This document shows, one piece after another, positions 44,241-53,453 of a stretch of DNA of 64,000 nt (within the stretch, counting starts at the first letter, position 1; the number at the start of each line of letters is the position of its first letter). Below the pieces are notes generated by a model, which was not told the DNA's origin, searched no databases, and worked only from the letters and a program-made list of their open reading frames with translations. A program made the translations under genes and the position numbers. This DNA is from Bacteroidota bacterium (GTDB lineage Bacteria; Bacteroidota; Bacteroidia; AKYH767-A; JABDAW01): contig JABDAW010000001.1 of assembly GCA_013288905.1 (NCBI GenBank), positions 7,723 to 71,722 of the forward strand, read 5' to 3'.

Positions 44241-44261
44241 ACAAAAGTTTCATTCATAAGA

Positions 44262-44290
44262 AAAGCGACTTTAGTAAGCCGCTTTTTTTA
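44262..44290 (+). terminator. Rho-independent terminator.
   Basis: Stem aagcgac/gccgctt (one mismatch) followed by T7, 22 bp after the stop of the lutA-like gene. Confidence 0.6.
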
Positions 44291-44562
44291 TAAATTATTA
44301 GAATGAAATCAATCCTTAGGAGGAATGATCTTTTTAGTTATCGATTTTACTCCTTCGTATAAATCTCTATCTCCCATTCCCCATTGAGATTCAAGTCAAG
44401 GTTAGTAGTATTCAGGAATTGTTTGCCTAAAAAACTTTTGATTAGGTTTAATTATTAAATTATCGTATTAGTTATTTTAATTGTTGATATAGAATTAGAA
44501 TTATAAGCAGTAGTGAAAAAGTTAATATTGTTGGAAAATTTTCCAAACACATCCGCCAATCG

Positions 44563-45090
44563 GAATAAAAATGTTAAAATTGGGGTGTTTTTTCTGGGGA
44601 AATGGGTGGGTAGAAAAGGCAGAAAAAGTGTTAACATTTAACATAATATTTTAGAGATTGCTTGATAATGAGCAAGATCCACCACAAAGGTGGATAGTAT
44701 TGGGGGACAGGAGCATAGTTTTGAGGATTAAATGGATGGTTTTAACGAACAGATGGAGGGTATTGGCGATTGGGAGCAAAAAGTGGGTTTTTGGGTGTGG
44801 TGGAGGGTGGGGCGGGACTGACATTCTGTCAGTGAGGTGGGGTAAATGGTGCATTAATGGCAGGAATGAAGGGTTTGAGGGGAGTATTTTGGGGAACAGG
44901 GGGTAAAAAATCTCATTAAGATGAAGGTTTTTTTGGATGGGGTGGAGGATATTGTGGATGAGATGGAATGTGTTAAAATTGGGATGCAGGGTTTGGGGAA
45001 TCGGGTGGAGGGTTTTGGGAATATGAGGAGGGATTTTGGGGATTTGGGAAGGGGTTGTTTTATTTGGGTGGAGGTTCAGAAAAAGAGTGG
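44563..45090. repeat. Degenerate, strand-asymmetric G-rich 21-bp array (~25 units, consensus about GGTGGAGGGTWTTGGGGAWWW).
   Basis: ggtgga falls at 44689, 44941, 45004 and 45067, and gatgga at 44752 and 44962 (all differences are multiples of 21). gttaaaattgg falls at 44573 and 44972 (399 = 19 x 21). Confidence 0.8.
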
Positions 45091-45459
45091 GAATGGGAAA
45101 AATAGGAACGCAGATAAAAATGATTGCTTATGACAAGGTATGATTTTTATGCACCCGCATACATACTTTCAAGATAATGAACCGTATCCCCGGACATATA
45201 CACATAATCCTCCAGCATATATTTATGTGCAAAAGCATCCTGACAGCTGCCACCTGCTGCTGTAAGATTCAGAAAAAGAGTGGGAATGGGAAAAATAGGA
45301 ACGCAGATAAAAATGATTGCTTATGACAAGGTATGATTTTTATGCACCCGCATACATATTTTCAAGATAATGAACCGTATCCCCCGACATATACACATAA
45401 TCTTCCACCATATATTCTTGCGCATAAGCATCCTGACATCTGCCCCCTGCTGCTGTAAG
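45075..45459. repeat. Tandem duplication, 2 x 193 bp.
   Basis: ttcagaaaaagagtgggaatggg... starts at 45075 and 45268. The first ~90 bp of each copy are identical. The substitutions cluster in the part that is coding on the minus strand. Confidence 0.9.
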
Positions 45460-45489
45460 GTTGCCATTGTATTTTATTAGGAATTTCAT
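45340..45489 (-). CDS. Unannotated 49-codon ORF (MKFLIKYNGNLTAAGGRCQDAYAQEYMVEDYVYMSGDTVHYLENMYAGA).
   Basis: My own translation. It is below the track length cut-off. A start-less variant copy of codons 11-49 lies at 45147-45266, with both synonymous and non-synonymous differences. Whether it is expressed is unknown. Confidence 0.35.
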   Translation of the reverse strand: MKFLIKYNGNLTAAGGRCQDAYAQEYMVEDYVYMSGDTVHYLENMYAGA

Positions 45490-45562
45490 ATTTAAATTTG
45501 ATATATATTGATAAAGTAACGGGGCAACCTTACAGCAGCAGGGGGCAGCTGTCAGGATGCTT
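45426..45562. repeat. 40-bp inverted repeat (1 mismatch) flanking a 57-bp AT-rich spacer.
   Basis: aagcatcctgaca(t)ctgccccctgctgctgtaaggttgcc at 45426-45465 matches its reverse complement at 45523-45562. The spacer holds the ATG of the 49-codon ORF. Confidence 0.9.
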
Positions 45563-45580
45563 GGTCAATATGGTTTATCG

Positions 45581-46009
45581 TCATCTCTTACTTTCCAATT
45601 GTTCTTCTTCCAGTTTAATAACTCCTACTAATGTTTTCACTAAAATTATTTCAACTATTAAAAACACAATTGGAATAATCAATATCACATTGATGTTTCC
45701 CTGAACTATCTGAAGAATGATAGTTTGAATTTCTATCAATGCCCTTACGATGGTTAATATTGTCAAGGCTTCGGGAGCGCCTTTAATGATGGTTACAAAG
45801 GCTAATGCCAAACCAATAGCAAGGTTTCTGGCAGCAAATTCATAATTTGCATTTTTGATAATGGCATTAGTAAGGTCAAGACCCGCTCCATCTTTGAAGA
45901 GCAATGAAATATCAAAATAACCCACTACCGCAAAAGCAATGTTTACTAATGCTAAAATCCCTACTGCTGTTCGTACCCATTTTGGTATATTGTCTTTGTG
46001 ATTGCTCAT
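45581..46009 (-). CDS. Small integral membrane protein (about 4 TM), unknown function.
   Basis: 142 aa with hydrophobic segments VRTAVGILALVNIAFAVVGYF, LAIGLALAFVTII, LTILTIVRALIEIQTIILQIV and VILIIPIVFLIVEIILV. Confidence 0.6.
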   Translation of the reverse strand: MSNHKDNIPKWVRTAVGILALVNIAFAVVGYFDISLLFKDGAGLDLTNAIIKNANYEFAARNLAIGLALAFVTIIKGAPEALTILTIVRALIEIQTIILQIVQGNINVILIIPIVFLIVEIILVKTLVGVIKLEEEQLESKR

Positions 46010-46032
46010 ATATTTATTAATTTTATCATCAT

Positions 46033-46605
46033 TTAGTTTTTTCTGACCAATGGAATCTGCAGATTGGTTGGTCTGTTTTCTTCTTTGTCAAACCCTCGTC
46101 CATCCACATTTCTCGCTCCCCAAAACATCAGTTCGTTAAATATATAAATCAAATCGTACTCCGAAAAGATTTGTCCTTCTGCAAGTCCGAATGGAACAAA
46201 AGCTTTTCCTAAAATACTTTGTCCGGCATTCACTTCCCATTTGTCGAAACCAGTACTTGCCACTTTGTTCATGGCATCTGCAAAACCTTGAATTATAGGA
46301 GTAACCTGGTATGCTTCATCGGCAGTGAAGTCCACCTTTTGCGCCCCTGCTGCTATCGGATGGTCGCCTTTCCAAAACATAGTTCCTTTCAAAAGAATTT
46401 TCACAAGAGGCACTTTGCCGAATGGGTCAACAGCGTTTATTACCTCCAATTCAAATTTGTCGCCGGGCATCGCCTTGAATGTTCTGGTCAGGTAAAATGG
46501 TTTAATACTTCCGTCAGCATTTTTAATTGAGCTTGGGCGAAGTTCGGGCGCAATGCTTTTCCATTCGCCACCTTGAATAAATTGTTTAATTTCTTCTACT
46601 GTCAT
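46033..46605 (-). CDS. Hypothetical cytoplasmic protein (190 aa).
   Basis: ORF with a -7 box 23 bp upstream. It lies 23 bp upstream of the membrane-protein gene. No family recognised. Confidence 0.55.
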   Translation of the reverse strand: MTVEEIKQFIQGGEWKSIAPELRPSSIKNADGSIKPFYLTRTFKAMPGDKFELEVINAVDPFGKVPLVKILLKGTMFWKGDHPIAAGAQKVDFTADEAYQVTPIIQGFADAMNKVASTGFDKWEVNAGQSILGKAFVPFGLAEGQIFSEYDLIYIFNELMFWGARNVDGRGFDKEENRPTNLQIPLVRKN

Positions 46606-46627
46606 TTTATTATTATTTATTTGGGTG

Positions 46628-46635
46628 CAAAGATA
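46628..46635 (-). promoter_or_regulatory. Candidate -7 box TATCTTTG (minus strand).
   Basis: Exact TAnnTTTG, 23 bp upstream of the ATG at 46605. Confidence 0.4.
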
Positions 46636-46929
46636 GGGTTTGTTGTGGTTCTTATTTATGGTTTAGATTATTGGTGTAAAGCATTCAGGAGGTAGGGGAT
46701 TAAAAATCCCCAGTGAAAGACAAGCAATTGCAAATCGCTCGAAGCGATACGTCATATTCTATCTAACAGCTCGGAAATCGAATGAAAAACAAGCAAATTT
46801 TTCGGGCTGTTAGAAAACCTTTTTTACAGCTTTTAAGGTGTAGGGGTAACCAGCGGCTCTGGGGGCTCTGGTTATATCCTGCACGTCTGGTAAAGCCTAC
46901 ATGTCCAGTTTTATCGTCATTCGTTGAAA

Positions 46930-47742
46930 TTATAATTTCTTTCTCCATTCAGGATCATTAAAATCAACTTTTGTAGCTTCTTTCCAAATTATATCATAAT
47001 GCATTTTAGCAAAGTGGCTAAAATAGAAACTGTTCCCTTTAAGTTTTAATTTTAAATGGGGTGATTCTGTACAATTTCTTTTTCTCCAAAAAAAACCAAG
47101 ATAAATAATGTCATCAACTGCATAAATACTAAATGTACTATTACCATCAAAAAGTCTGATTTCAAAATTATTAGGATGGTTTGACTCTGAATATAATTGA
47201 AAAAACTTTGCAAGGTTTGAGTTAATTTCTCTAGGAACATAGTCAGTATCTTCGACTACTCCTAATTCTTGTCCACGAGCTTTAGCATAATTTGATTTAG
47301 GATTTAAAATCAATATTTCAACTTCCATATTTTTTTCAAGGGCAATTCTTATCGCGTTTTCTACAGGAATGAAATTTCCAATCCAAGTTTGCAAAATCCA
47401 TATTTTGTGTTTTCCAACCATCACATCATATTCAAAGTCATAAACTGGAAGTTTTTCATGTGATGAAATAATACCTGATTCTAATTCATATTGTACTTGT
47501 TTTAGTTTTTCAACAAGCAGAATTTCTTCATCTTTTCTAATGAGTTTTGCATAGATAAAATGGGATGCAATTGCAGCAGCTACAAATGCTCCAATTTCAC
47601 CAATAAAATGAATCCAGTGATTTTCTGTTTGATGATTTTCTGCAATTAGCATTAATATCAAACCAATTAAAAACACTATACCTACTATAAGGTAATATTT
47701 CCAGGAAAAAAGATTTGGTATTCTGTCAGAATTTTTTGCCAT
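46930..47742 (-). CDS. Two-TM protein with a C-terminal DUF5919/PLD-fold-like domain lacking HKD. Candidate membrane-anchored defence effector or sensor.
   Basis: TM1 YYLIVGIVFLIGLILMLIA and TM2 FIGEIGAFVAAAIASHFIY. The C-domain pattern KIWILQTWIGNF...VEILILNPKSNYAKARGQE...IRLFDGNSTFSIYAVDDIIYLGFFW...SPHLKLK....FYFSHF..HYDIIW recalls DUF5919. This is a recollection that has not been searched. Confidence 0.5.
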   Translation of the reverse strand: MAKNSDRIPNLFSWKYYLIVGIVFLIGLILMLIAENHQTENHWIHFIGEIGAFVAAAIASHFIYAKLIRKDEEILLVEKLKQVQYELESGIISSHEKLPVYDFEYDVMVGKHKIWILQTWIGNFIPVENAIRIALEKNMEVEILILNPKSNYAKARGQELGVVEDTDYVPREINSNLAKFFQLYSESNHPNNFEIRLFDGNSTFSIYAVDDIIYLGFFWRKRNCTESPHLKLKLKGNSFYFSHFAKMHYDIIWKEATKVDFNDPEWRKKL

Positions 47743-47958
47743 ATTTTAAATTTGTACTTTATTGTTTTTGTCTGATTATTAAATGAAACCATACAGGTGC
47801 AGGGGGCACCTGTCCGGTTTTATCGTCATTAAAAATTTATAATTTAGTTTTTTTGATATAAAATAGCAATTCTATTAGGTCGGCTATATCCAACACATCG
47901 GCTATATCCTGCATATCGGGTTATATCCTGCACGTCGGGTGTATTCACTAATTATTTA

Positions 47959-48858
47959 TTAACTTATTTTCTTTCTGCTTGATGCAACAAATATTTCAGG
48001 ATTATCATCAGTCAAATCTACATCATATTCCCTTCTGTCTAAAATCTGCAAGAAATGAATTACGGAATTATCTTCAGGTACTATTTGTTCATTTTCAACT
48101 CTGATTAAAACGTTTAAAGACTGGCATTTAGCAATTAGTTTTTCCATTGAGGTTCGTTCCAAATCTTCTCTCGATTTTATTGACGCAATCAATTTGGCTG
48201 CTGCTTTTGAGTGACCTACATAATTTGCAAGATAATTGAAATTTACAAAAGCAATCCGAGTTGTTAAAAGTCTTGTAGCATCTGCTGCAGTTCGTAAAAT
48301 TTCTTCTTCAATATTTGCAATAAAAGTAAAGCCAGTTGGATGAAGAATATCTATAACTAATTCATGAATAATAAAATCGAAATCAATATCCAATTTGAAA
48401 ATATCGTCTACTACCACTTTCAAAGTATCATCAACTAATTGGATTAATTTATTATGTTTTTTTAATAGCCCTTTAAATTGTGAAGGTCTTCTTACCGCAA
48501 TTTGTTTAGCACCATTAATATGATGAAATACTGCAAAATAATATGTAATTTTATTTGCAATTTCAGAAAGGACTAAATTTGAAACAGGAATATTTGGTTG
48601 ATTATATAAATTATTAAGAGAATTAAGATTTTGGTTGTTTAAAGGAATTGTCAATTTTTCATCTTGACCATATTTTTCACTAGCTTCAAAAAGTAACGGA
48701 TTACCATCTATAGCCAAATATGTATTGTAAAATGTTTCATGCATTTCATACAACGATTGTCTTACTGAATCGTCAATTGGGATAAGAGCAATTATTTCTT
48801 GCCCATCGATAATAGAGCAAATTCCAAATTCAATACTACGAAAATCTTCAAATGGCAT
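47959..48858 (-). CDS. kwaB: KwaB-like protein (DUF4868-like), second gene of a Kiwa-type pair.
   Basis: 299 aa and cytoplasmic. The central pattern IAVRRPSQFKGLL...IFKLDIDFDFIIHELVIDILHPTGFTFIANIEEE and the C-terminal ...IVPEDNSVIHFLQILD resemble DUF4868 as I remember it. It overlaps the preceding 4-TM gene by 11 nt. Confidence 0.5.
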   Translation of the reverse strand: MPFEDFRSIEFGICSIIDGQEIIALIPIDDSVRQSLYEMHETFYNTYLAIDGNPLLFEASEKYGQDEKLTIPLNNQNLNSLNNLYNQPNIPVSNLVLSEIANKITYYFAVFHHINGAKQIAVRRPSQFKGLLKKHNKLIQLVDDTLKVVVDDIFKLDIDFDFIIHELVIDILHPTGFTFIANIEEEILRTAADATRLLTTRIAFVNFNYLANYVGHSKAAAKLIASIKSREDLERTSMEKLIAKCQSLNVLIRVENEQIVPEDNSVIHFLQILDRREYDVDLTDDNPEIFVASSRKKIS

Positions 48859-49399
48859 ATTTATAATTTTTTAGTTCAATAAAAACAGAATTACTTATTC
48901 GATGGACTTTTAGCTCTTTGATATTTGATGGTATTCTTGTTCTCTTGGTTAATAATACAGAACAGTTATAACTATCAATTGTATAAACGCGATAACCAAG
49001 AATTGCAAAAAGTATATTGATAAAATGTAAATTCATATTCCACAATACAAACACAACAAAAAAGATTGCGCTTATCATAGCAACAAACTCTCTATTAGTG
49101 GTAATTGTCACACTAAAAAGAGGAAGCAAAATAGTGATAAGATAAGTAAATAAATATTCTCTATTGGTTTTTGTTTCAGAAACATCTAATAAGAAAGTAT
49201 CGTTACTTTTCTTTGAAAAGTAAATTCTTAACCAAATAAAAAGATAAGGAATAACAACTAAAAAACTAACAGCAATCCATAAATACTTATCACAGATGAC
49301 ATGATCAAATCCTTTTATACCAATCAAAATAAACAAGGGCGCCATGCTGCTTAAAAGCATCATTAACTTTATTAAAGGAAGACCTTCATTTGATTTCAT
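48848..49399 (-). CDS. kwaA: KwaA-like four-TM membrane protein.
   Basis: 183 aa. TM segments LIKLMMLLSSMAPLFILIGI, LWIAVSFLVVIPYLFIWLRIYF, YLFTYLITILLPLFSV and FVAMISAIFFVVFVLW..INILFAILGY. It sits directly upstream of and overlapping the DUF4868-like gene, which is the Kiwa gene order. Confidence 0.5.
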   Translation of the reverse strand: MKSNEGLPLIKLMMLLSSMAPLFILIGIKGFDHVICDKYLWIAVSFLVVIPYLFIWLRIYFSKKSNDTFLLDVSETKTNREYLFTYLITILLPLFSVTITTNREFVAMISAIFFVVFVLWNMNLHFINILFAILGYRVYTIDSYNCSVLLTKRTRIPSNIKELKVHRISNSVFIELKNYKYAI

Positions 49400-49401
49400 T
49401 T

Positions 49402-49785
49402 TTATAAATTTTCATTTATCACTTCAAAGCCGATAAATTGAGAGTCACTATAGTCAAGCATAGTGCCATCCCTTTGTGTTGTACATAATATTGTTAAGGC
49501 AGTAAAATCAGAAGGTTTTTCCCTTTCTAATCCATCATTCCAAATGTAATTAAAATCCATATTTATAATTTCTTTTACAAATTGAGGATCCTCTTTATAC
49601 AATCTTTTTGCATCAATCATAACAAATTGTCTGTTCCTTCCATTTTCAAAAGCAAGTGGAATAATATGCATATCTTCATAAGTGCCCTCAGTCCATATTT
49701 GGCATTTATATATTACACCATGTTTTAATTTGAAAAATGGTTCTTTAAGTTTTATCGAACTTTCGTACATTGAATTTTCATTCAT
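49402..49785 (-). CDS. Hypothetical protein (127 aa), tightly coupled to the kwaA-like gene.
   Basis: Its stop at 49402 leaves only 2 nt before the next ATG at 49399. No family recognised. Confidence 0.5.
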   Translation of the reverse strand: MNENSMYESSIKLKEPFFKLKHGVIYKCQIWTEGTYEDMHIIPLAFENGRNRQFVMIDAKRLYKEDPQFVKEIINMDFNYIWNDGLEREKPSDFTALTILCTTQRDGTMLDYSDSQFIGFEVINENL

Positions 49786-49846
49786 GATATTATTGTTTGT
49801 ATAAATTTATTTCTTTTTTTGTTTGCAAAGATACTTTTATAAAATC

Positions 49847-50521
49847 TTATAATCCCTTACCATGAAATCTATTTCTAAAATCATCAAGAAGTCTTTGACT
49901 GATTTTTTGGTCTAATCCATCAATAGTTCTTATTCCTTCTATTGGCAAAAATCTTAATTCCTGAGTTTCAATCGGAGAATTTAAGGTATATAGATTATTT
50001 GCTACAGACTGAATATTTATATCCTTTACATTCATTAAAGTTATAGTAATGCAATATGATTTGGAAGAAGTAAAGTTGTCAAGATAAAACGAAACTCCCT
50101 TCGTTATATATATTGTTGCTTTTCTGATGACCCAATCAAAATCAATAACCATATCATTATTCATGTAAGGGTTCTTATCAATTTTTAAATTATGATCAAA
50201 TATTTCAATAGCCCCATTATGTAACCAATTCACATAAAGTAATTCATTATATATAACCATTCCTTCCTCATTAGAATATCTTAAGATATAAGGATTATTG
50301 CCAGAGGGGTCATTATTTAGTAATGAATCAAAATATTTAAACTTCTCACTTTTGATTTCATCAGTTAAAGCTGTTTGAGATATATTCTCAATTCCTGTAG
50401 GAACTATATGAATTAGTATACCACTTCTATTAGAGGTAAATGGAGTTAAGACAGGAGAGATTTTAAATCTTTCTATTCTTTGATGTAATAATTGGAAGTC
50501 CATTTTTTTTTCTTTCATCAT
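49847..50521 (-). CDS. Hypothetical protein (218-224 aa), first gene of the four-gene cluster.
   Basis: ORF with three possible ATGs (50521, 50518, 50503). There is a 61-bp gap to the next gene. No family recognised. Confidence 0.5.
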   Translation of the reverse strand: MMKEKKMDFQLLHQRIERFKISPVLTPFTSNRSGILIHIVPTGIENISQTALTDEIKSEKFKYFDSLLNNDPSGNNPYILRYSNEEGMVIYNELLYVNWLHNGAIEIFDHNLKIDKNPYMNNDMVIDFDWVIRKATIYITKGVSFYLDNFTSSKSYCITITLMNVKDINIQSVANNLYTLNSPIETQELRFLPIEGIRTIDGLDQKISQRLLDDFRNRFHGKGL

Positions 50522-50566
50522 TTTATGACTGCGTTCCCCTCTTGGGGCGCAGCAATAAAATGATGA
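50515..50566. other. Long hairpin / REP-like palindrome covering the first two ATGs of the 224-aa ORF.
   Basis: tcatcattttat...ataaaatgatga (perfect 12-bp outer stem) enclosing gactgcgttcccc tctt ggggcgcagca (imperfect inner stem). It contains the GGAACGCAG core on the minus strand. Confidence 0.75.
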
Positions 50567-50610
50567 TTAGTAGTATCGGGATTGTTGGTTTTTGGCATGG
50601 TTTGGTTATT

Positions 50611-51036
50611 TTATTTGAAAGGGTTAATAATGGTCAGTTTGGATTCTATTACCAAGCCGTCTTGCATGTCTTCGGAATAGAGGATTTCGCAGTTATTTTC
50701 TAAAGCAGAAGATACGATTAAGCTATCCCACCAGCTTAATTGATATTTATTAGAAATTTTGAAAGCTGAATGGAATGTTGAAGGATTGAGCAAGACTACA
50801 TTAAATTTTTCGAGTAACTCTATTCCATGATTGTAGGATTTTTCTTTTGACAGTTTAAGGCTTCTCATACAAGCATTAACATTTTCTGCAACAACCTGTG
50901 TGCTGATAATGTATTTTTTAGAAACAAAGGCAAGGACTATTTCGCGTTTCACAAGATCTTTATCCATCAAATAGACAAGAATATTTGAATCCAAAAATGT
51001 TGGTTTAGCTTCTATCATCTCTGTCATAAAGTTCAT
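50611..51036 (-). CDS. vapC: PIN-domain ribonuclease toxin (VapC-like).
   Basis: FLDSNILVYL (Asp1), ...STQVVAEN... (Glu), WWDSLIVSSA (Asp3) and LYSEDMQDG (Asp4). The true start is probably Met4 or Met7 (51027/51018). Confidence 0.75.
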   Translation of the reverse strand: MNFMTEMIEAKPTFLDSNILVYLMDKDLVKREIVLAFVSKKYIISTQVVAENVNACMRSLKLSKEKSYNHGIELLEKFNVVLLNPSTFHSAFKISNKYQLSWWDSLIVSSALENNCEILYSEDMQDGLVIESKLTIINPFK

Positions 51037-51259
51037 CCCTGTTAAATTTGTAATTGCTCAAATCAACACTGTATTGGGAATAAAACTCTCTTAGAGATTG
51101 TCTCCATTCTTCTTCAGTTTGCTCCTTTTTTTCTGGATTATCGCTCTCAACTTTATGAAGAGATACCTCAATATCTACTTCTTTATCTTTGAACTCATCG
51201 GGTAACACAAGGTGGAGTTCGTTGCCTTCGGTTTTAACAATCTTTTTTATAGCACTCAT
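51005..51259 (-). CDS. Cognate antitoxin (VapB-like).
   Basis: 84 aa, acidic. Its 3' end overlaps the PIN gene start. A -7 box lies 58 bp upstream. Confidence 0.6.
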   Translation of the reverse strand: MSAIKKIVKTEGNELHLVLPDEFKDKEVDIEVSLHKVESDNPEKKEQTEEEWRQSLREFYSQYSVDLSNYKFNRDELYDRDDRS

Positions 51260-51316
51260 AGTTTATATATTTTATTAGGATGTAAAATTAAGAAAAAATT
51301 TGGAGATAGCTTTATG

Positions 51317-51324
51317 CAAAATTA
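51317..51324 (-). promoter_or_regulatory. Candidate -7 box TAATTTTG (minus strand).
   Basis: Exact TAnnTTTG, 58 bp upstream of the ATG at 51259. Confidence 0.35.
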
Positions 51325-51336
51325 TTTTTGTCGCTT

Positions 51337-51759
51337 TTATTTTGAGGCATATTCTACCGTCCATTCTATTCCATATTTGTCTCTGAACATCCCGAAGTAG
51401 GAACCCCAGGCACTGTCGGCTATGGGCATTTCTATGTTTCCGCCTGCTGATAGTCCATTAAATAATTTGTCGGCTTCTTCGCGACTTTCTGTACTGACAG
51501 CTATCTTGGAACGGTTTTCATTTTCATTTACCCTTCCCATAAATTCGGGAACATCATTGGCTATTAAAATGTTATTGCCTATGGGCAAAGCAATGTGCAT
51601 GATTTTATTTGCTTCATTTTCCGGTATAGGGAATTCCGTGCTCGAGAGGTCTTTGAAACGGACTATCCTGGAGAACTGTCCGCCAAAAACCGATTTGTAG
51701 AAATTGAAGGCTTCTTCGGCATTTCCGTTGAAGTTGATGTGGGGATTTATTTGGGGCAT
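51337..51759 (-). CDS. VOC/glyoxalase-fold protein (PhnB/YjdN-like).
   Basis: INPHINFNGNAEEAFNFYKSVFGG...MHIALPIG...AWGSYFGMFRDKYGIEW is the PhnB-like VOC pattern. Confidence 0.7.
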   Translation of the reverse strand: MPQINPHINFNGNAEEAFNFYKSVFGGQFSRIVRFKDLSSTEFPIPENEANKIMHIALPIGNNILIANDVPEFMGRVNENENRSKIAVSTESREEADKLFNGLSAGGNIEMPIADSAWGSYFGMFRDKYGIEWTVEYASK

Positions 51760-51779
51760 GGGGTTATTGTTTTAAAATT

Positions 51780-52049
51780 GGAACGCAGATGATGCAGATT
51801 GTTTATGACAAGATATGATTTATTGATTCCTAGGAAAAAATCATATCTTTTCATATAAATCAGCGGTATCTGCGTTCCTATTGTTATTTGATACATAGGA
51901 ACGCAGATGACGCGGATTGTTATGATTAAATATGATCTTAGGATTCCAAGCAAAAAATCATATCTTTTCATAACAATCCGCGGAATCTGCGTTCCTATTC
52001 TCTTAAAAAAATCATATCTTTTCATATAAATCAGCGGTATCTGCGTTCC
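51780..52049. repeat. REP-like imperfect hairpin elements with GGAACGCAGAT termini: two full copies plus one right half.
   Basis: Element A at 51780-51888 and element B at 51897-51996 each start with ggaacgcagat and end with atctgcgttcc, and have complementary inner arms (..atgacaagatatgat / atcatatcttttcat..). A right arm alone lies at 52008-52049. Confidence 0.85.
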
Positions 52050-52053
52050 CATC

Positions 52054-52476
52054 TTATGCGTTAATCAGTTTTTCGATGTCGAATTTTGTCATTTGCATAA
52101 AGGCATATAGTACCTTTGGTGCCTTTTCGGGGTCGTTCATCAGTTTGCCTAAAATGGAGGGGACTATTTGCCAGGAGACACCAAATTTATCATCCAGCCA
52201 GCCACATCTGTTATAGGTTCCGCCTTCGCCAAGGAGCTCCCAATAATAGTCAATTTCTTCTTGTGTGTCGCAGGTAACTACATACGAATTCGCCGGCGAA
52301 AATTTGTATTCCGGTCCGCCATTGAGAGCCATGAATTTTGTTTCATTCAGTTCAAAGATTACTACCATTGGGTTTTCGGAAACTATTTTTGAGTTTTTGA
52401 AAATGGAACAGTAGAATTCGGCAGCCGCTTTGGCTTGCCCGTTATACCAGAGGCAGGGGAAAAGTTTATTTGTCAT
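52054..52476 (-). CDS. VOC-fold protein of the 3-demethylubiquinone-9 3-methyltransferase-domain type.
   Basis: FPCLWYNGQAKAAAEFYCSIF....FELNETKFMALNGGP...CDTQEEIDYYW..L.......CGWLDDKFGVSWQIVP is the classic pattern of this family. Confidence 0.75.
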   Translation of the reverse strand: MTNKLFPCLWYNGQAKAAAEFYCSIFKNSKIVSENPMVVIFELNETKFMALNGGPEYKFSPANSYVVTCDTQEEIDYYWELLGEGGTYNRCGWLDDKFGVSWQIVPSILGKLMNDPEKAPKVLYAFMQMTKFDIEKLINA

Positions 52477-52868
52477 ATTATTTATTTAAAGTAGAAAATG
52501 TTACGATGATTATAAGCTGTGTTAAGCATTGTAGAATTTGATGTTGAGATTTGAGATGCCAAATTAACTAAATATTTCTTTTACCACCAAATTTTTTGTT
52601 AAATTTTTTTCATGAGACAGAATAACCGAGGAGATAATTTTTCGAAAATCTCACCGTGACTTGTATAAAAAATTCTTGAATAATTTAATTCAATTGCCAA
52701 TATATGTTTCTTGATACTAAAAATTTGCCAGGTGATAAAAATAAGAGAAATATTGATCGGTTAAAGTAATAGAATGATAACAGTTACCCCGAAATTTTAA
52801 ACCTGGTCTTTATCAAAATTCAAATTTCTTTTCACTTTTATCGTTCATGGGCAAATAATAAATAAATA

Positions 52869-53453
52869 ATGATACGGTTACTCTTCCTTTTATTCACAAT
52901 AATTTCTGTAAGCTCCTTTGCTCAAAAGGATGTGAAAGTGAATCCTCATAATGACACCCTGTTGAAAGATACGGTGGGTCCTTATTACCAGAAGCTTGCC
53001 GATAATCTGAATAAAGTGGTAGATGATTTCCCGAATAACTTCGATAAGATCAAAGGAAAGAAGGTCAGTATAAATTCGAAGATGATGACTTGGTATTCTA
53101 AAGTTACCATTCCTGAATGCGAGCAAGGAATCATCTACCAGGAACCTGCTTCCGGCTTTGATAAATGGGTCTATAAAGCCCGCCTGATAAGGAAAGATGA
53201 TAAGCAAGAACCCATAAAGCTTTATAAAGACTTCCTTAAGAAACTCCGCCTGACAAAGCTGAATTGCTGCATCATGGAATTGAAGGAGAACGTGGATTAC
53301 ATGGGGGATTATATCGCGACCTGGCATACCTTGATGCTGATGGAAGACAAAAGCAAAGGCTTCAAGCAACTGACGATCAGCCTCAGATATCATGAGCCTC
53401 AAGGTGATGAGAAAGCAGAGGTCTATCTTTATATTATGGGGTCTGATGAATAA
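52869..53453 (+). CDS. Secreted hypothetical protein (194 aa).
   Basis: Signal peptide MIRLLFLLFTIISVSSFAQ. I prefer it over the antisense ORF 52890..53402. Confidence 0.55.
   Translation: MIRLLFLLFTIISVSSFAQKDVKVNPHNDTLLKDTVGPYYQKLADNLNKVVDDFPNNFDKIKGKKVSINSKMMTWYSKVTIPECEQGIIYQEPASGFDKWVYKARLIRKDDKQEPIKLYKDFLKKLRLTKLNCCIMELKENVDYMGDYIATWHTLMLMEDKSKGFKQLTISLRYHEPQGDEKAEVYLYIMGSDE

Follow-up and report, generated by a model that had tools for sequence, protein, structure and literature searches.

A putative two-gene Kiwa system of a divergent branch in a low-GC island of a soil Bacteroidota genome

Kiwa in Escherichia coli and in a soil bacterium

The reference systems for Kiwa are those of Escherichia coli O55:H7 RM12579 and ECOR8/12/49, for which the structures 9mrg, 9mrr, 9mrx, 9mtn and 9nyu are available (10.1101/2023.02.26.530102). 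They consist of two co-directional overlapping genes: kwaA, which comes first and codes for a membrane protein with four transmembrane (TM) helices and a cytoplasmic beta part, and kwaB, the product of which combines an alpha/beta domain with a DUF4868 domain in about 300 amino acids (aa). Here we describe a gene pair of this kind from a 64-kb stretch of DNA (contig JABDAW010000001.1, positions 7,723 to 71,722 of the forward strand; referred to as the window), which belongs to the metagenome-assembled genome (MAG) of a soil member of the Bacteroidota. The locus is very probably an intact two-gene Kiwa system of a divergent, mainly Bacteroidota branch, acquired horizontally and situated in an accessory island with a low guanine-cytosine (GC) content. 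It is not a new kind of system, the subfamily being already covered by PADLOC models.

Gene order, co-direction and overlap, the domain plan of both proteins (for the window KwaA as predicted) and the setting in a defence island are shared with E. coli Kiwa. The differences concern the length of KwaA (183 aa in the window compared to 195 aa) and of KwaB (299 aa compared to 315 aa), the gene overlap of 11 nt in place of 4 nt, and the host, which is a soil member of the Bacteroidota and not an enterobacterium. Furthermore, the NCBIfam equivalogs miss the clade to which the window pair belongs. With the Bacteroidota-centred Kiwa subfamily described by the PADLOC models PDLC00218 and PDLC00228 the pair shares identical protein lengths, the 11-nt overlap, the same invariant residues and, for the closest relatives, 65-78% sequence identity. 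Examples of this subfamily are DMZ43_07590/07585 of Meridianimaribacter sp. CL38, the KwaA homologue of Parapedobacter sp. ISTM3 and a pair from a Burkholderiales MAG. Regarding the reference itself, the Kiwa locus of RM12579 (NC_017656 5117500-5125500; L023 in our numbering of loci) adjoins the gene of an HsdM-family methyltransferase and a degraded integrase, and it also lies beside a phosphorothioated DNA-binding restriction endonuclease and a type II Zorya system.

The two open reading frames (ORFs) of 183 and 299 aa with an overlap of 11 nt, which had been described in an earlier reading of the DNA (the original prediction), are present in the window (Table 1). kwaA is located directly upstream of kwaB on the same strand, and on the coding strand the shared sequence ATGCCATTTGA extends from the ATG of kwaB to the TGA of kwaA. 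This overlap is probably a site of translational coupling. Both ORFs are intact and are matched by their profiles from end to end. The AT-rich setting noted at the same time could be quantified, since the pair has a GC content of 28.4% compared to 36.3% for the window as a whole and ranks among the 1.8% of 1441-bp windows with the lowest values. The surrounding 3.6 kb from 46930 to 50521 (28.5% GC) form the most AT-rich block of that size in the window.

Profile matches, topology and fold of the two proteins

The assignment to KwaA and KwaB put forward in the original prediction is supported by profiles, topology and fold. Of the PADLOC models for KwaA, PDLC00218 covers the 183-aa protein with E=2.1e-44 over model positions 4-185 of 186, and 11 others match it as well. 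For the exact 183-aa protein a match to PF28043 (KwaA) is, in addition, precomputed in the protein collection. The PADLOC KwaB model PDLC00228 yields an equally full-length match to the 299-aa protein (E=2.6e-68, model positions 7-299 of 300). That the second protein resembles DUF4868 had been proposed on the basis of its sequence pattern and was confirmed with Pfam PF16162 (KwaB, formerly DUF4868), which scored 46.6 bits over residues 119-282 at a gathering cut-off of 26.3.

The four TM helices expected for the 183-aa protein were found both by the Kyte-Doolittle method, with four hydrophobic segments at approximately residues 8-29, 39-61, 82-100 and 104-135, and in an AlphaFold2 model (pLDDT confidence 78), which shows long helices at 7-29, 37-64, 81-95 and 102-120. 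The strand residues of this model are located in intracellular loop 1 (ICL1, residues 65-80) at 68-72 and 76-77, and in the C-terminal tail at 137-141, 147-151, 162-167 and 172-175. Lysine and arginine residues are distributed unevenly, with four in the loop 62-80, nine in the C-terminal tail and 0-1 in the remaining loops. This distribution fits the positive-inside rule and a topology with cytoplasmic N- and C-termini. The model agrees with the published architecture, in which four TM helices are combined with a cytoplasmic barrel of six strands contributed by ICL1 and the C-terminus. Alignment with hhalign placed the conserved KwaA motif 'KKSND' (K64/N66) on K75/N77 in the ICL1 of the E. coli protein with a probability of 74%. 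In E. coli, mutation of these interface residues abolishes defence. On the level of single residues, the aligned positions lend weak support to the assignment.

The AlphaFold2 model of KwaB reached a pLDDT of 81; for both proteins 29-30 homologues served as input. In Foldseek searches against the PDB the top six hits of the KwaA model were solved KwaA chains (9mrx, 9mrg, 9mrr) with E=1.3e-4 to 1.4e-2, and the hit following them already had E>2. Similarly, the KwaB model retrieved solved KwaB chains in the first six places (9nyu_A, 9mrx_D and chains of 9mtn) with E=1.2e-7 to 6.4e-6, a probability of 1.00 and 311-325 aligned columns, and the seventh hit followed at E=0.07. Solved KwaA and KwaB are the only significant structural matches of these single-protein models. 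In the predicted structure of KwaB the two-domain fold, consisting of an N-terminal Rossmann-like domain and the DUF4868 domain, is recognised; in their arrangement the domains superpose only loosely.

Several observations weigh against this assignment. Structural alignment with KwaA and KwaB as characterised in E. coli gives an identity of only about 12-16%, and the anti-phage function of this Kiwa branch is putative. The NCBIfam equivalog for KwaA, NF041622, reached 40.4 of the 100 bits required, and the 299-aa protein was matched by none of the NCBIfam KwaB models; due to this shortfall the relatives carry the label 'hypothetical' in their sources. A phmmer search of KwaA and KwaB against the PDB sequences returned no KwaA or KwaB chain, and the KwaB clade profile retrieved no PDB sequence by hmmsearch, solved KwaA and KwaB included, so that the distance to the solved proteins is bridged by fold comparison and not by these sequence searches. 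The TM-scores are modest, with 0.34-0.47 over both proteins (0.40-0.44 for KwaB) at a root-mean-square deviation of 9-11 Å. Since monomer models were compared here with oligomeric and partly domain-rearranged structures, the recognition of the fold can be considered specific, even if the superposition is not tight. The comparison of the KwaB clade profile with E. coli KwaB by hhalign gave a match of 36 columns with 6% probability. In this low-probability match K155/D157 are aligned to the E. coli DNA-contact residues R167/D169, and the transfer of DNA-contact sites to the window protein at residue level is therefore weak. Within the clade K155/D157 are (nearly) invariant, and many basic residues of the DUF4868 half are invariant. 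Finally, the source genome is a soil MAG of 59% completeness, and a search for RNA runs holding the stretch found none.

By homology with the E. coli system (Zhang, Todeschini et al., 10.1101/2023.02.26.530102) a mechanism can be proposed. In the inner membrane KwaA would assemble into a tetramer, to the cytoplasmic beta-barrel of which KwaB dimers would be docked. The membrane protein may sense perturbation of the membrane at the site of phage attachment or of DNA entry, or during conjugation. KwaB would bind the incoming DNA non-specifically via DUF4868 and without cleavage, and this binding would stall replication forks, by which late transcription and virion production would be blocked. 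The pair is expected to work as an autonomous module.

The conserved pair and its genomic setting

Homologues of equal length were found in numbers of 76 for KwaB and 100 for KwaA, with identities of up to 78%, and the closest relatives come mostly from Bacteroidota. Named sources are Meridianimaribacter, Parapedobacter, Flavobacterium and a Burkholderiales MAG. A pair of 183 and 297-299 aa is kept in eight related loci, the neighbouring genes of which all differ, and the 11-nt overlap was present at each of the six homologous junctions checked. The junction ATGnnAnTTGA is common to the loci L001, L013, L014, L015 and L017; in L002 the overlap of 11 nt ends in TAA. All clade-invariant residues are present in the KwaA and KwaB of the window. 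Because size and overlap are kept while the neighbours change, and because one pair stands alone, kwaAB is shown to be the conserved unit.

In five of the seven distinct contexts of the related loci the pair is embedded among type I restriction-modification (R-M) genes or directly adjoins them. The arrangement is hsdM..kwaAB..hsdS..hsdR in L001, L013 and L017; L015/16 and L020 have kwaAB-hsdS. PIN or PIN_12 genes often accompany these R-M-embedded loci of the clade. In L002 the pair is located beside an OLD-TOPRIM/UvrD (Gabija-like) pair with flanking serine recombinases, and in L014 kwaAB stands alone among housekeeping genes. Defence cargo inside a type I R-M operon is also found in the EcoprrI locus, which carries PrrC. 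A further defence pair embedded in such an operon is TgvAB from VPI-2 of Vibrio cholerae (10.1101/2024.04.04.588119). The relatives of the window pair show the same placement of cargo inside an hsd operon, whereas the window copy is not embedded, and neither TgvAB nor PrrC is related to its proteins. Unlike most of its subfamily, it is flanked by orf127 and orf224, a PIN toxin gene and the gene of a DUF5919 protein with two TM segments. The absence of R-M neighbours from the window copy and from L014, the other copy of this kind, argues for an autonomous module. The sole Methylase_S (hsdS-type) match of the assembly is found on another contig (C77:11386-11889). The open frame around it has 1217 aa and suggests an R-M fusion enzyme without linkage to Kiwa.

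The original prediction had also described the setting of the pair as typical of defence islands, and comparison with a genome of the same genus (G002) located the pair within an 8.7-kb insertion that is missing there. Homology between the two genomes ends at 44241 and resumes at 52914; the flanks are a LutA-like (CCG-domain) gene on one side and orf194/TlpA-like genes on the other. None of the 11 island genes was found at the syntenic region of G002. KwaB is absent from the genomes of 40 relatives, two of them from the same genus, and of the 146 genomes of the order only three contain PF16162. The island lacks a target-site duplication, shows no similarity to the empty site and has neither an integrase nor a transposase, and the 64-kb window yielded no tRNA gene. 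With these negative results, and with end hairpins that occur genome-wide, a bounded mobile element was rejected as a description of the island. The hairpins concerned are REP-like (GGAACGCAGAT...ATCTGCGTTCC ends) and are located near both island ends, at 51774-52053, 45098-45146 and 45292-45339. Their family pattern gave 68 matches across many contigs of the assembly and none in the reversed control.

Table 1. Coordinates of the Kiwa pair and of the features surrounding it (window positions)
Feature	Position	Strand	Description
kwaA	48848..49399	-	183-aa membrane protein, four TM helices; loop and C-terminal tail with six predicted beta strands
kwaB	47959..48858	-	299-aa soluble protein; N-terminal alpha/beta domain and C-terminal DUF4868 domain (residues ~119-282)
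kwaA stop/kwaB start overlap	48848..48858	-	11 nt, ATGCCATTTGA
orf127	49402..49785	-	small soluble protein of 127 aa; stop 2 nt before kwaA start
orf224	49847..50521	-	224 aa, near-orphan; 61 nt upstream of orf127
-7 box match	49826..49833	-	TATCTTTG, fits Bacteroidota TAnnTTTG; 41 nt upstream of orf127 ATG
orf270	46930-47742	-	270 aa; two N-terminal TM segments and DUF5919 (PF19319, E=4.6e-7)
GC-rich hairpin	47793..47813	.	8-bp stem, between kwaB and next gene; terminator-like
VapC-like PIN toxin and upstream 84-aa ORF (putative antitoxin)	50611..51259	-	PIN gene 50611-51036, ORF 51005-51259, overlapping
Variable island with Kiwa pair	44242..52913	.	8.7 kb; same-genus genome G002 has ~117 bp here

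A VapBC module had been proposed as a neighbour of the pair. Its toxin half could be confirmed by a match of the PIN domain PF01850 (E=5.7e-13), whereas the antitoxin half is assigned by position only, since profile searches with the 84-aa ORF, NCBIfam included, gave no significant family hit. Directly downstream of kwaB and in the same low-GC block follows orf270, which has no PADLOC hit. The hairpin between the two genes may mark where the transcription unit ends, and a repeat at 45526-45570 is related to it.

Further repeats were observed in the island. Tandem units of 19 nt (TATATCCTGCAnnTCGGGT) are located at 47897-47944 just 3' of kwaB, with a related copy at 46867-46895 that lies 3' of orf270. 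Behind a tandem duplication of 193 bp (45072-45264 and 45265-45457, 94% identity) comes an inverted repeat of 52 nt (45426-45477 and 45511-45562, 88%). The left end of the island, 44560-45090, is non-coding, strongly G-rich and C-poor with a GC skew of 0.63, and GGTGGAGG-type units occur there at multiples of 21 nt. Towards the other end, two paralogous genes of 140 aa (VOC/3-dmu-9_3-mt, PF06983) are encoded on the minus strand at 51337-51759 and 52054-52476 with REP hairpins between them, and the 101-aa ORF at 51747-52052 that covers these hairpins looks spurious. A protein with a sorting domain of the type IX secretion system is encoded nearby, a sign of Bacteroidota.

Upstream genes and rival explanations

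The short gaps on the same strand and the -7 box upstream of orf127 (Table 1) make co-transcription likely, and orf127 is probably transcribed together with kwaA. The box TATCTTTG is a possible promoter for orf127-kwaA-kwaB. As the pattern TAnnTTTG is not enriched in the window (94 found compared to 85 expected), the box serves only as a lead, and a scan for sigma-70 promoters remained at background level. For orf224 the homologue search yielded the protein itself and one protein of 178 aa with 81% identity, and searches against Pfam, PADLOC, NCBIfam and PHROG gave no hit. orf127, orf224, orf270 and vapBC are absent from all eight other loci of the Kiwa clade. orf127 and orf224 are therefore not conserved Kiwa partners; they are probably co-expressed neighbours and not obligatory parts of the system.

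The family of orf127 comprises 35 clusters. Its members share a domain of about 115 aa, and most of them carry an additional N-terminal zinc ribbon of the YjdM/PhnA type. Six other loci of the family were found, one of which was uninformative. Directly downstream of the family member follows PDC-S02 in two of them (L025, L026) and a GmrSD-like gene in a third (L024). The L027 copy comes right behind a type I hsdR and has FRG and GmrSD-like genes as neighbours, and the L018 copy is convergent with the gene of an HNH protein. The occurrence of these relatives beside varied defence genes, and without Kiwa, indicates a family that is associated with defence and not specific for Kiwa. It may represent an undescribed gene of this kind.

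This association raises the question whether the unit in the window comprises more than two functional genes. One such explanation takes the orf127 family as an undescribed, exchangeable defence accessory; the window would then hold a Kiwa variant of three genes, with KwaAB regulated or triggered by orf127. We consider this unlikely. Somewhat less probable still is a three- or four-gene variant under one promoter, with orf127 and perhaps orf224 as partners of KwaAB that would act, for instance, as regulator, sensor adaptor or second effector. It could account for the close packing of four genes on one strand, with kwaA 2 nt behind orf127 and orf127 61 nt behind orf224, for the low GC content which orf127, orf224 and kwaAB have in common, and for the Bacteroidota-type -7 box just upstream of orf127; the position of orf127 relatives directly in front of PDC-S02 and the GmrSD-like gene is also in accordance with it. 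The same gene array was, moreover, found in an independent soil run. In the assembly of that run, however, the product of orf224 is 100% identical, so that both arrays come from one population and do not amount to independent conservation. Against this variant stand the eight other loci of the clade, in which kwaAB occurs without orf127, orf224, orf270 or vapBC and in one case alone among housekeeping genes, together with the near-orphan character of orf224 and the presence of orf127 relatives in loci without Kiwa. A four-gene Kiwa system is accordingly not supported.

The missing R-M genes allow a different explanation, namely a Kiwa homologue that no longer defends, either as a remnant after loss of a type I R-M operon or re-purposed, for example to exclude only conjugative DNA. 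This is very improbable. Most other contexts of the clade lie in or beside type I R-M genes while the island has none, the Methylase_S match of the assembly is found on another contig, and conjugation is lowered by E. coli Kiwa as well. A remnant is nevertheless difficult to reconcile with two intact ORFs that match their profiles over the entire length and have kept the clade-invariant residues and the coupling overlap. Furthermore, the relative L014 also stands without R-M genes, and cloned E. coli Kiwa operons protect E. coli BL21-AI. An intact two-gene Kiwa system thus remains the explanation we prefer for the locus.

The main value of this finding lies in correct annotation, since the branch is labelled 'hypothetical' or 'DUF4868' in the sources and is missed by the NCBIfam equivalogs. 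The locus extends confirmed Kiwa into a soil lineage of the Bacteroidota. It is slightly unusual in lacking the R-M context typical of the clade and in its tight linkage to orf127, and the family of the latter provides a testable candidate for a new defence-associated gene. As a natural case of a clade that is usually found inside type I R-M loci and here occurs without them, it argues that the KwaAB pair works alone.

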